A stretch of 64,000 nt of DNA from Paraspadella gotoi (lineage: Eukaryota; Animalia; Chaetognatha). The notes beneath the pieces are model-generated. The model was not told where the DNA came from. It was given only the letters and a program-made list of their open reading frames with translations, and did no database searches. Position 1 is the first letter of the stretch. Every line of letters starts with the position of its first letter. Shown here piece by piece: positions 12,398-31,573 of this stretch. The position numbers and the translations under genes are program-made. The DNA is taken from positions 8,616,764 to 8,680,763 of the forward strand of contig CM119264.1 in NCBI GenBank assembly GCA_051294375.1, given 5' to 3'.

Positions 12398-15300
12398 ATG
12401 ACAACGAACAAAAACAACATTCATCGCTATAATAAATATCAACTGGAGAACTGGCATCAATCCTTCAACGAATGGAATGATGACGACGACGACAACGACG
12501 ACGACGACGAAGACGACGACGACAAGATCGACAATTTCTCTCACAGGGAATCCGTCGATTCGGCCAAGTCCGGCAAGGATTCCAATCCCTCCGTCGATTC
12601 GGCCGACGACCCCGCAGTTCCCGTCGTGCTGTGCATCGAGGTGAGAAGATGTGTCCACTGACTAAGTGGGGAGTATTGGTCGGCCAGTGCGTTGTCGGGA
12701 AGGGAAGGGCTTTCAATATGTCTTCCCCCCGTGAACTATTGTGAAGATTTCCAGGAAGTCGAGGATAGTTTAGGCAAGGCTAAGCACGGCGATGCACGGA
12801 AAGGCAAGGCAAGGCATCACCGGAAAAAACTGAAATATAAAATTTGAAACGTTTTTGGCTTCAATTTCTTTTTTTTTTTTTTTTTGTTTGTTGCAAACGT
12901 GAAATTTTGACGTAGATTTTTTTCGCGTTTTTTTCGTTTGCGCCAGAAATAAAATTTTTCATGAGATAAAACAAACGAGAAAAAATAAAATAACAGACTC
13001 GGTATTTTTCCTTTTCTTTTTTTCTTTGACGTCACAAATATTTTTTTAATATTGTTTTTCTTAATGTTATTTCTTTTTTGAAGAAAACTCTCATTCAAAA
13101 ATATCGTTTTGCCGNNNNNNNNNNNNNNNNNNNNNNNNNNNNNNNNNNNNNNNNNNNNNNNNNNNNNNNNNNNNNNNNNNNNNNNNNNNNNNNNNNNNNN
13201 NNNNNNNNNNNNNNNNNNNNNNNNNNNNNNNNNNNNNNNNNNNNNNNNNNNNNNNNNNNNNNNNNNNNNNNNNNNNNNNNNNNNNNNNNNNNTCTCACGC
13301 TAAAATCGTCTCCAGATTGACGAGGATTTGTATTTGACTCATGTCGCGTCTCCTCATGTGGTGAGAAAAAAATCCGCTTGTGAAAGTCGATGCCAAACAA
13401 CATAGTCGATATATATTGGAATTTTTTCTTGGTTGGATGAGATATTTGCTTACGGGTAGAAATAAGAGATAACTTACTAACTTGTAACTTGTTAAATTTC
13501 GAGAAAAAAAATTAAAAATTTTAAAATGAAATTTGAAAAACCTCGAATTTGATCCCGCTAAGTCTCTAAAAATCTATCGAGGATTTTGGAAATTGTTCCT
13601 ACTTTTTTTTATTATTCAAGATCAGAGTGAATATAACTTTCCGTCACTTTCTTTCCGGGGCTTTCTCATTGGGAATCAAATATACCTGGATCTGCACATA
13701 TAACTATGATGATGGAGTCGTTGTTAACACATTTTAGAAATAAAAGAATTGTCATCAAATTTTTACGTCGCAGAGAAATTCCTTGACGCGGATTTCGTTG
13801 GAGTCTTTTCTTAACATCTCATCCATTTATCCGGAAAGATTAAAGAACAAACTTGCGAGAGGAGCATCAAACCAAAAGTCAGTCAAACGTTGAAATTTTT
13901 ACACCCGGTCAATTTTTTTGACTGTATGGCAACAGTCGGGTTACCTGTGATGCCCATTGGGATGGGGCATCTCACTGTTGGCTTTGGGGGCTTCCGACCC
14001 TCAGTGACGCCTCCAGTCACTGGCGCGGTTACCCTAGGACGGTCTCGCTTTGCCAACGCAGAGGGAAGTCGTTAGGACTGTGGATGGAACACTACGCCTG
14101 GGATGGTGTGATCCCCCTCTGAGCCAATGGACTTGGCTGAATGATTGGGGACGTGAGGCGGTGTGAATATACCGCCACAACAGCCCTCTTTATCTGTTTC
14201 GGTCTGGATACTATGCCACTTTGGCACTATAAATAGATTACCAAACATTCATAATTTTACTTCAAGTGCTTTATTAAAAACAAAAATTTAAAATCAACCT
14301 TATTCATAATCACGAATAAAAAACGCTTTCTTCTTTCCAACACAATTAACAATTAAATTCCAATTATCCGCTATAATTTAATCTAATAAAAAGTTCAAAC
14401 CTAATTTTTATATTCACGGTTTTTATTTATTTATTTATTTATTTATTTATTTATTTATTTATTTATTTATTTATTTATTTATTTATTTATTTATTTATTT
14501 ATTTATTTATTTATTTATTTATTCGCCATGAACTAGTATATAAATTTACCAATTTAATAAAAATAATGTCTAATAATTCAACCAAGGACTTTTCAAACGC
14601 TTTGCAGATATCGAAGCGAAATGTTTCAAATTTGGAGATCGTATTACGAAGACGTCATTGAAATGGAACCTCGGGGTCAGTTTCATTTTCATTGATATTG
14701 ATTACTTTGCGTTCGTTCTCTCTGTCCGTTCTTTCATCTCTCGTAATGACTGCTCCGGCCTTTCATCCGATCATCCATATATTCAGAGTTTCACGAGGCG
14801 GACATATTGAAGCCCACGGAACCTCCACCCATTTTGATTCAAGGAGAAGAAGGAGACGAGGAAGCAAATATACAGACGAACCTCAACAAGTACTCTCTCT
14901 CTGTTTCTCTGTTTCTCTCTCTCTGTCTCTCTCTCTCTCTNNNNNNNNNNNNNNNNNNNNNNNNNNNNNNNNNNNNNNNNNNNNNNNNNNNNNNNNNNNN
15001 NNNNNNNNNNNNNNNNNNNNNNNNNNNNNNNNNNNNNNNNNNNNNNNNNNNNNNNNNNNNNNNNNNNNNNNNNNNNNNNNNNNNNNNNNNNNNNNNNNNN
15101 NNNNNNNNNNNNNNNNNNNNNNNNNNNNNNNNNNNNNNNNNNNNNNNNNNNNNNNNNNNNNNNNNNNNNNNNNNNNNNNNNNNNNNNNNNNNNNNNNNNN
15201 NNNNNNNNNNNNNNNNNNNNNNNNNNNNNNNNNNNNNNNNNNNNNNNNNNNNNNNNNNNNNNNNNNNNNNNNNNNNNNNNNNNNNNNNNNNNNNNNNNNN

Positions 15301-30300: not shown

Positions 30301-31573
30301 CATTCTTCATTCAGAAGTAAAACTCAGGATCATCCAGATGCCAAGCATTTGCAAGTCATCAAAACAAGCGCAAAACCTTTTTGCTTGAGCCGTCGTTGCA
30401 TTTTCTTCTTGTCATTGTCGTCGTCGTTATGTCGTCGTCGTCGTCTCTTATTTTGGCAGTCTTCATTCGAAAGTCGAAATCTTGTCGGTTTTTCTTGTCA
30501 TCGTCGAATATATCGTTTCATCGTCGCCATTATCGTCCTCCTAATTTCCAAATTCTCATCGTCTTTTATCGATTTTAGATGGAAACGACCTCGATTTCGG
30601 ATTTCGTCCTTTGAAATCGCGATATTTTTCTTTTCTTCTTTTTTTTTTACAATTTCTCTTTCAACTCCCACTCTTTTTTTATTTCGATGATCGTCGGTAT
30701 CGTCTGTCAGGAAGATCAAACCGATATCGTAATTGTTGTTGGCCAATGCAACATTTTTCAAACCTCTCGCGGAGGCACAAACCAAGGCAGGACCAGCGAT
30801 CATCTAGATCGTCACTTCATATACTCTGATACTATCCTCAATTTTATACCTCCGACTTTACCCAGTTTCCCCTTCCCCCTAATCCCCTTCTTCAGACGGG
30901 ATCTGACGAGTGGGAATTAGACTTCGACGCTCTGACTCCACTGGCGATAGAATTGAACTACAAGTGGAAACCACTTTCCTACGCGTGAGGATAAATTTGG
31001 CAACGTTCCTTATTTTTTTTTTATCACATATTCGTTTTTAACGTCGTTAACGGATATCGCTCTCTCTCTCTCTCTCTCTCTCTCTCTCTCTCTCTCTCCT
31101 CTCTCTCTCTCTCTCTCTCTCTCTCTCTCTCTCTCTCTCTCTCCAGCTTCATCGAGGAGAAGGAATCCAAAACTACATCGACTCTGAATCTAACGCGGAG
31201 AAATTGTCGAGCGTCGTCCAGGAGGGAGAGGGAAAGGAGGGGGAGAGAAGAAGGAGGATGCCAGAGGAAGGAGGAGAAGAGGAGGAGGAAGACTGAGGAG
31301 GAGAGAGAAAATAGGAAAGAAGGAAGAAGCAGAGGAGAGAGAAGGAAAGGAGGGGGAAGACTGAATAGTCGAAAGGAAGAGAGGATAAAAGGAAGGAAAG
31401 ACAAGACTCGGAGAAAAAGAAAGGAAATCATTAAGATGATCGAGAGCGACGAAGATATAAGGGGAGCAGTCATCGAGACGTTGTCCCCGCGAGGTGACGT
31501 CTACTTCGTCGATCGTTCAAGATTTGTCAATGTAATTTTACATTCCGTTTTTATCTCAGTCATTTGTAATTAA
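12398..31573 (+). CDS. Divergent PFK-1 regulatory-half / phosphoglycerate-mutase-like fusion protein (~1137 aa visible; 5' start next to a gap)
   Basis: 24 phase-consistent exons: 12398-12640, 13316-13360, 13774-13877, 14608-14675, 14787-14889, 16120-16295, 16888-16986, 17708-17921, 18109-18232, 18433-18627, 19130-19391, 24025-24154, 24579-24745, 24948-25043, 25234-25375, 25611-25706, 26148-26251, 26551-26618, 26837-26997, 27077-27180, 27341-27416, 27990-28108, 29204-29294, 31147-31573. PFK C-half motifs: GIVFVGAPCGGMNS, GGCALGT, IQALIIVGGFKAY, IPASTFGNVAGSDFSLGVDT, DFRLHIPKHLWWLALRPL. dPGM motifs: FQGWLDIHL, FDVVFTS, SWRLNSR, RYSDVEASDIPVAES, FLPFWNRIIKP, DVLIVAGKN. Confidence 0.85.
14421..14523. 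repeat. (ATTT)n microsatellite
   Basis: Perfect run inside an intron. Confidence 0.95.
18335..18426. repeat. (CAT)n microsatellite immediately upstream of a splice acceptor
   Basis: Near-perfect trinucleotide run ending just before ttcttag|18433. Confidence 0.95.
21060..22190. repeat. Nested diverged inverted repeats inside the hAT element
   Basis: Outer arms ~21063-21300 and ~21960-22190, and inner arms ~21680-21790 and ~21825-21935, are reverse-complementary with mismatches. Confidence 0.7.
21830..21878 (+). ncRNA. Degenerate minimal hammerhead-ribozyme-like motif (Penelope-type)
   Basis: aaatg-CTGATGA-agac...atc-GAAA-catGTC-cgattt followed by AATAAA. Palindromic ACATGT stem III. The mirrored arm at ~21735-21785 retains gtcGAAA. 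Confidence 0.45.
22240..22960. repeat. Degenerate telomere-like (CCCTAA)-rich tandem array
   Basis: Many ccctaaccctaa motifs interspersed within longer units. Similar patches at ~6600-6760 and ~20900-21010. Confidence 0.7.
23513..23806 (+). mobile_element. HINE/DINE-1-like non-autonomous element, copy 1
   Basis: Subterminal inverted repeats gttgcgccgc / gcggcgcaac, a (GTCG/GTCT)n microsatellite and a core aacctcaaatctaag shared with copy 2. Confidence 0.6.
27598..31022. repeat. ~1.7-kb tandem duplication across a 25-N gap (probable assembly artefact)
   Basis: 27598-29331 is repeated at 29357-31022. The second copy differs mostly by single-base homopolymer deletions that frameshift the two PGAM-like exons it contains. 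Confidence 0.8.
28190..28515 (+). mobile_element. HINE/DINE-1-like element, copy 2 (duplicated at ~29940-30260)
   Basis: ttgcgcctcgagtactcgaggagcaa 5' hairpin, gtcggtccgtcggtctgtcccactta, aacctcaaatctaag, 3' gtcactgcggcgcaac. Confidence 0.6.

Follow-up and report, generated by a model that had tools for sequence, protein, structure and literature searches.

The stretch of DNA analysed here, referred to as the window, comprises 64,000 nt of Paraspadella gotoi (CM119264.1) and is intron-rich and eukaryotic in type. On its + strand at 12398-31573 lies a gene that joins part of a phosphofructokinase (PFK) to a phosphoglycerate mutase (PGAM) fold. Our model of this gene has 24 exons, all on the + strand and with no stop inside them, and encodes 1,045 aa in the frame of its transcript, running from a low-complexity N-terminus through the C-terminal (regulatory) half of a PFK-1 and a linker into a whole dPGM fold. 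An original prediction made from the sequence letters had read the locus as an in-frame fusion of two glycolytic domains and a candidate double pseudoenzyme. Throughout, dPGM positions are given in E. coli GpmA numbering and PFK columns in the numbering of a profile built from 15 full-length eukaryote-type PFKs.

For transcript evidence we compared the window over 24880-31040 with a single public run sharing words with the region (X1), whose label as RNA is a software guess and which we treated as RNA because its joints are spliced. A contig from such data is a path through short words and not a molecule, and rare forms may drop out of it. The PFK-PGAM fusion transcript is confirmed as real, with PFK exons spliced in frame into PGAM exons within one 3,362-nt contig (X1 record 1, depth 202.5). 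The key joints, with raw cuts at 25372(+3)/25608(+3) and 25704(+2)/26146(+2) and 98 letters on the shorter side, correspond to the junctions 25375/25611 and 25706/26148 through which the fusion had been proposed to run, and both are GT..AG with agreeing phases. After cut shifts the contig skips introns at 25043/25234, 25375/25611, 25706/26148, 26251/26551 and 26618/26837, with further joints at 26997/27077, 27416/27990 and 28108/29204, and the joint 27180/27341 was deduced from the contig numbering as its own joint row is absent at a repeat. On its left side the contig has a loose end matching exon 13 and on its right side one matching exon 24, all dPGM exons are covered, and splicing is shown to keep the frame all the way from exon 14 through to exon 24.

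The original prediction had also named the pattern that would count against it, namely transcripts ending at the read-through stop after the PFK exon together with an independent transcript starting at ATG 26191. Both the stop (25464-25466) and this ATG are present in the window. The X1 depth does not show this pattern: we saw no PFK transcript ending by read-through and no leader belonging to the PGAM part by itself, with the reservation that minor isoforms could escape contigs. Depth in the bin 25292-25497 is 79.6, which is what the exon by itself would contribute (81/206 x 202.5), and depth in the bin 25910-26115, where the contig joins across, is 0. The exons thus account for all of the depth next to the linker, and there is no sign of separate transcripts.

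The PFK part of the gene is spread over exons 6 to 15. Exons 14-24 are supported by the contig, exons 7-10 by homology to a 203-aa protein fragment (P0121, discussed below) and exon 13 by both kinds of evidence, while exons 1-6, 11 and 12 were placed from splice sites, phase and GC content only. Exon 6 (16120..16295) encodes a basic low-complexity segment followed by the first strand of the PFK C-half; it was placed by phase, and the eukaryote-type profile aligns from aa 233. The C-half proper starts in exon 7 (16888..16986; TIGR02478 399-428, 85% identity to P0121 over the aligned part) and continues in exon 8 (17708..17921; TIGR02478 437-499, E 2.6e-11), which carries a regulatory-type GGFKA motif. 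The donor of exon 8 was placed at 17922 because the P0121 match then becomes gapless, replacing an earlier end at 17945. Exon 9 (18109..18232; TIGR02478 498-537) has PASTFGN where a PATISNN-type motif is expected, and in exon 10 (18433..18627), which was recognised by the eukaryote-type profile, a 7-residue insertion also found in P0121 replaces the MG(R/G) loop.

Exon 11 (19130..19391) adds a PFK strand and a low-complexity insertion of ~65 aa, its 3' end resting on a GTGAGA donor, phase and a GC content of 0.65 in the extension; the shorter form of our first model, ending at 19196, is also phase-compatible. The long intron that follows this shorter form (19197-24024) contains clusters of GCCGGA-type repeats at ~19550-19710 and ~23240-23360 and CCCTAA-like repeats at ~22200-22960, possibly a mobile element. 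Exon 12 (24025..24154) uses an unusual GAG acceptor and was placed by phase and a GC content of 0.52. In exon 13 (24579..24745; profile domain 2, E 9e-11), whose 3' end matches the contig loose end before 24947, GSVCGAG replaces the GHxQGG motif. Exon 14 (24948..25043), seen in the spliced contig, continues the PFK C-half, and the PFK C-terminal signature and linker start lie in exon 15 (25234..25375), which is supported by the contig, TIGR02478 and PDB matches.

Several comparisons place this part in the C-half of PFK-1. PDB matches of the signature exon to human PFKP and PFKM (E 2e-4) bear out the C-terminal signature read in the original prediction, and the same exon matches TIGR02478 at 718-743 of 744 (E 0.076, weak alone). 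The last PFK motif compared pairwise with PfkA was by itself not significant (120 of 200 shuffles were equally good), and exon 10, exon 13 and the opening 24 dPGM residues, each compared singly with the PDB, gave no informative match. TIGR02478 matches across the model are confined to the C-half (399-428, 437-499, 498-537 and 718-743, the first and last being weak alone), exon 8 reaches 34.2 bits with the C-half of human PFKM compared with 10.4 bits for its N-half, and the 15-sequence profile aligns to the model at positions 389-742 only (E 1e-53). When a bacterial PfkA profile of 31 proteins was run over the six frames of the window its five best matches formed one colinear exon copy, with no N-half and no PFK-like frame between 6540 and 16803.

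The tandem arrangement of two halves in a eukaryotic PFK-1 is thus absent, while its C-half fold and C-terminal signature are present as judged by sequence. The catalytic motifs GGDG(S/T), found in 14 of the 15 reference N-halves, and SIDND are missing, as they are from every C-half, with GGFKA and PASTFGN instead. Sub-profiles of the N-half gave no match in model aa 1-235, with the sequence gaps as a residual caveat, and on this result we rejected exons 1-4 as a relic of the last helices of an N-half. Contig position 2157 corresponds to window 24948 and of the 2,156 nt before it our model leaves 224 unexplained, compared with the roughly 1,100 nt that a missing N-half would need. We infer that the gene contains no catalytic PFK N-half; the C-half-only profile positions and the 224 nt support the original view that a regulatory half alone is present.

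The regulatory half has also lost its ligand site, which was overlooked in the first reading. Nine columns are replaced (R465D, N526G, R560I, E565T, E624S, R650Q, H656S, Q659G and R720H), each of them conserved in 11-15 of the 15 references, with column 624 less sure as it lies at the edge of an insertion. We take these columns to be the fructose-bisphosphate effector site of human PFK1 and E. coli PfkA, and with the Arg, His, Glu and Gln columns for the sugar bisphosphate replaced a metabolite sensor, as suggested earlier, is not supported in so far as it would work through the PFK half. At profile column 647, which is aromatic (F or Y) in 12 of the 15 references, the model has Tyr, and this column presumably corresponds to the interface position F638 of PFKL. 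Published studies place the fructose-bisphosphate site in the PFK regulatory domain (PMC10586780, PMC11345425) and describe the F638 interface position and the formation of PFKL filaments through regulatory domains (PMC5551713) as well as tetramerisation of eukaryotic PFK1 through the same domains (PMC11345425).

The linker leads through exon 16 (25611..25706, 96 nt), which was seen in the contig and in which window and contig differ by two single-base indels that offset each other, into exon 17 (26148..26251; contig and homology), where the linker ends, the dPGM fold begins and the in-frame ATG 26191 lies. The fold continues through exon 18 (26551..26618; contig and domain scans), exon 19 (26837..26997; contig, TIGR01258 E 5.8e-11), exon 20 (27077..27180; contig), exon 21 (27341..27416; raw joint 27414/27988 and contig numbering) and exon 22 (27990..28108; contig, TIGR01258) to its C-terminal part in exon 23 (29204..29294; contig). 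Its end, together with a short acidic tail and a stop at 31294-31296, is encoded in exon 24 (31147..31296), which corresponds to a 149-letter loose end of the contig behind 29294 with one extra base. Model residues 770 to ~1026 cover the whole of E. coli GpmA (5-250) at 32% identity over 256 aa (E 2e-46), the domain scores 203 bits with the dPGM profile and TIGR01258 matches exons 19 and 22, in agreement with the complete dPGM domain claimed earlier. This is a full-length histidine-phosphatase branch 1 fold of dPGM type, with a short PGHD-type segment (26837-27416) as in GpmA and not the longer insect-type segment.

The pocket of this fold is altered. Of 48 columns conserved in at least 90% of 151 reference dPGM domains the model keeps 36 and departs at 12, and seven of the 12 are taken to be pocket positions (H11, G12, N17, E89, Y92, K100 and R116). 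In exon 17 the RHG motif has become RNT with Asn at H11 (His in 145/151 references), in exon 19 the catalytic Glu position E89 is Ser (Glu in 145/151), in exon 20 the substrate pair R116/R117 is Cys-Asn and in exon 22 the second His, H184, is Gly (AGKN for AHGN; His in 123/151). Loss of all three of the phospho-acceptor His, the acid Glu and the second His is found in one of the 151 reference domains. Retained in the pocket are R10, R62, R90, N186 and R189, and basic residues are gained at 17, 100 and 185 (N17, K100 and G185 being R, R and K). In human PGAM1 His11 is catalytic, Glu89 is the proton donor and His186 stabilises the transition state, as given in PMC11484934. With both catalytic His and the catalytic Glu replaced the domain is very likely dead as a mutase, as had been proposed, and the gene product shows the sequence marks of a pseudoenzyme, that is an intact and expressed frame, a kept fold and lost catalytic residues. 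In a dPGM tree built by a quick method on 57 rows, a subset of the 151, the domain sits on a long branch (3.3 compared with a median of 0.21) and is unplaced, and we therefore claim no donor for it.

Relatives were found for the PFK part. When 1.84 billion representatives were searched exhaustively with exon 8, 35 matches reached E<=0.001, from which two fragments stand apart, P0121 (203 aa, 74% identity) and P0122 (99 aa, 73% over 41 aa). All 203 aa of P0121 align gaplessly with model aa 253-455 at 70% identity, crossing three exon junctions, while its identity to the 15 canonical PFKs is only 25-36%. It shares with the model the losses at 465, 525-526, 560 and 565 and the loop insertion. The degenerate C-half is, going by sequence, a conserved subfamily since P0121 is 70% identical and has the same losses where the two overlap, and the alignments show conservation in this second source for the PFK part only. 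PF00300 was found in none of the 22 exon 8 matches scanned against Pfam (20 long proteins and the two fragments). An alignment search using GpmA plus exons scored 7,994 candidates, of which 485 passed; among the 120 long proteins listed none had a PF00365 or PfkA match. Word-index protein searches with exons 8 and 19 yielded no relative, which is weak evidence, a scan of viral contigs with GpmA gave nothing and atlas searches returned just generic PFK and dPGM fragment clusters. Two metagenome loci from 384 pattern matches were both rejected as chance.

At its ends the gene model is less firm. The visible part of exon 1 (12398..12640), encoding the acidic low-complexity N-terminus, was placed by an open frame, a GTGAGA donor and a GC content of 0.51 and has no homology; its start is uncertain because 12398 abuts a 414-base run of N (11982-12395) in which the true start may fall. 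Exons 2 (13316..13360), 3 (13774..13877), 4 (14608..14675) and the Pro/Glu-rich exon 5 (14787..14889) were placed by AG/GT sites and phase only. Three single-base indels separate the transcript from the window. Two lie in the linker, with an added contig base behind 25633 and a missing one at 25660, so that the frame does pass through the linker as originally read while about nine of the residues then quoted are, relative to the transcript, in the wrong frame. The third, an extra contig base near 31156, moves the stop to 31294-31296 and gives an acidic end of ~49 aa in place of the 141-aa Arg/Glu/Lys tail that the frame of the window carries to 31573, and the Arg/Glu/Lys-rich tail of the original prediction is accordingly replaced. 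This correction rests on one contig and an allele difference is possible, and homology is indifferent between the tail frames (206.2 and 203.4 bits). We prefer the transcript frame because the window is indel-prone around here, as in the repeat at 29357..31020, an indel-rich second copy of ~27600-29331 (exons 22-23 and introns) with 94.8% identity over 1,739 columns, 8 mismatches and 82 gap bases. The contig skips this repeat, which adjoins a 25-base N run and is likely an assembly duplication. A similar false tandem duplication likely lies at 6465-6575, beside a short N run.

As far as we searched the architecture is undescribed. The original prediction knew of no PFK-1::PGAM fusion, and we found none in the literature searched (most subscription journals were outside its scope) or among the protein matches listed; the passages of PMC11976288 consulted do not mention one. 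The gene resembles eukaryotic PFK-1 (human PFKM, PFKL and PFKP) in its colinear C-half 389-742, its GGF motif and its DF..IPK..WW..LRP signature, and differs in lacking the catalytic N-half, in its replaced effector columns and loop insertions and in running into a second domain. With the dPGM/BPGM family (PF00300, TIGR01258) it shares the full fold at 32% identity to GpmA, the GpmA-like PGHD segment and R10, R62 and N186, whereas it has RNT, has lost the Glu, the second His and the Arg pair and sits C-terminal to a PFK half. By their Pfam accessions the 120 long proteins listed include dPGM joined to other glycolytic-enzyme families, partners that we take to be GAPDH, PGK, enolase, TPI, aldolase, pyruvate kinase, adenylate kinase and NDK. 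Unlike the present gene none of these has a PFK partner and nearly all retain the catalytic His. A lacewing protein (P0008, 558 aa) likewise has an animal PGAM domain, N-terminal in this case, without the equivalents of His11, Glu89 and His184, but its partner is an intact C-terminal PGAM and not a PFK half, and identity is only 28%.

PFKFB (PFK-2/FBPase-2) also consists of a domain named as a kinase followed by a histidine-phosphatase fold, its PFK-2 being an unrelated P-loop fold. Here the N-terminal partner is the PFK-1 family PF00365 and the phosphatase-fold part is dPGM-type and dead, and exon scans found PF00365 and PF00300 only, bar one weak unrelated match, with no P-loop PFK-2. The gene is therefore not classed as an active PFK-1, dPGM or PFKFB. 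Glycolytic folds are known as flagellar parts: PMC7999657 describes Eno4 as a component of sperm accessory structures and locates PGAM, together with enolase, to the C1b projection. Those proteins are single-domain, in contrast to the fusion, for which ciliary placement is only a lead.

Within the window an adenylate kinase gene (5538-8960, - strand; Pfam ADK) is arranged head-to-head with the fusion gene. A frame at ~7790-7820 in its upstream region, presumably part of the kinase gene, has a PGYxGHVP motif, a putative ciliary microtubule-inner-protein repeat for which Pfam gave no match. Other features are an ankyrin-repeat gene (455-1260, - strand), exons of an amiloride-sensitive sodium channel (ASC; 36265-41248, + strand), a VWA-domain gene (48700-49660, - strand) and an intronless frame of 489 codons (44837-46303, - strand) with weak helicase/STAND/Schlafen-like NTPase matches at E 4e-5 or weaker, upstream of which a further open frame extends to about 47600. 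The channel and the VWA gene suggest by themselves that the DNA is from an animal.

What such a protein might do can be approached from what it has kept. We propose that the fused PFK half and dPGM fold of this one transcript may act as a non-catalytic structural scaffold through their oligomer surfaces, the likeliest of the roles considered though a proposal that could as easily fail as stand. A role through surfaces is suggested because an intact, transcribed frame preserves the cores of both domains but not their pocket residues, and a free PFK C-half would suit self-assembly or PFK docking because PFK1 tetramers and PFKL filaments use regulatory domains. Assuming both folds to be stable, the protein would use the tetramer surface of the PFK C-half and the dimer surface of the PGAM either to assemble with itself or to dock the real PFK and PGAM, and its N-terminus and insertion, charged and disordered, might serve as anchors. 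The likely origin is a duplicated eukaryote-type PFK gene that lost its N-half and, by way of a linker that preserves phase, was joined to a duplicated PGAM gene. The bridging of real PFK and PGAM oligomers and the flagellar location raised in the original prediction are plausible. A wider view, which we think unlikely, is that of a conserved invertebrate family of double pseudoenzymes that would tether upper- and lower-glycolysis enzymes as a metabolon scaffold, possibly ciliary or flagellar and co-regulated with adenylate kinase.

A number of observations weigh against a scaffold. Identity to the canonical partners is ~33% and co-assembly with the real enzymes may have been lost, the kept and gained basic residues of the dPGM pocket fit ligand binding over a purely structural role, X1 is the sole run behind the fusion, the 5' part contains or is preceded by four N gaps (246, 414, 178 and 614 bases, sizes estimated), and both P0121 and P0122, being fragments, end before the linker, so that the conservation shown is that of the PFK part.

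The pocket residues lead to the alternative that survives best, a metabolite sensor in which the basic dead dPGM pocket would bind 2,3-bisphosphoglycerate, 3-phosphoglycerate, phosphoenolpyruvate or an anion and the PFK half would join or cap PFK-1 tetramers. We give this a small though appreciable chance. The five retained residues and the basic residues at 17, 100 and 185 favour it, and two papers report that PFK1 activity needs regulatory-domain tetramer contacts (PMC11345425) and that PGAM1 binds fructose bisphosphate and is still stabilised by it after losing His11 alone in H11A (PMC11484934). In the same source R10A, E89A and H186A bind it sharply less, and the fusion has lost the R116/R117, E89, Y92 and H184 positions as well as the PFK half's own effector site. 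Sensing of fructose bisphosphate by the dPGM domain is doubtful, weakened as it is by the loss of both the E89 and the H186 positions.

Hidden catalysis seems improbable, whether as residual or new chemistry in one domain, for instance a PGAM fold acting as a phosphatase that needs no His, or through a catalytic PFK N-half concealed in the gaps. N gaps do lie 5' of and inside the model, and the 5' end of the contig, whose comparison was confined to 24880-31040, could be cut. Against this stand the triple catalytic loss so rare among the references, the absence of anything PFK-like upstream of 16803 with just 224 nt unexplained, and the divergent adenylate kinase gene ~3.4 kb upstream. It is very improbable that two neighbouring genes were joined by read-through splicing or contig assembly to give a minor or spurious fused form. 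Such genes could use the ATG 26191, which opens the dPGM fold in frame, and the stop after the PFK exon, and the evidence is a short-word path from a single run; yet the contig is unbranched and of one depth, every joint is GT..AG and has a shorter side of 68-103 letters, depth next to the linker exons is that of the exons, and a dedicated 96-nt linker exon preserves phase. A transcribed relic decaying without function, to which the very long dPGM branch and the large low-complexity insertions might point, is the least probable given 24 exons without a stop, losses clustered in pocket residues with the core kept and a gapless 70% orthologue of the PFK part.

Pseudoenzymes have precedents, as have glycolytic fusions, and this gene presents a PFK-1 half without catalytic half or effector site joined to a dead PGAM, indicating that a PFK-1 C-half can stay under selection without its ligand site. 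Whether animal cells contain organised glycolytic complexes is an old question for which there have been no dedicated scaffold proteins to perturb. A non-catalytic product of a single gene built from two glycolytic oligomer modules would allow a knock-down test that spares the catalysts.

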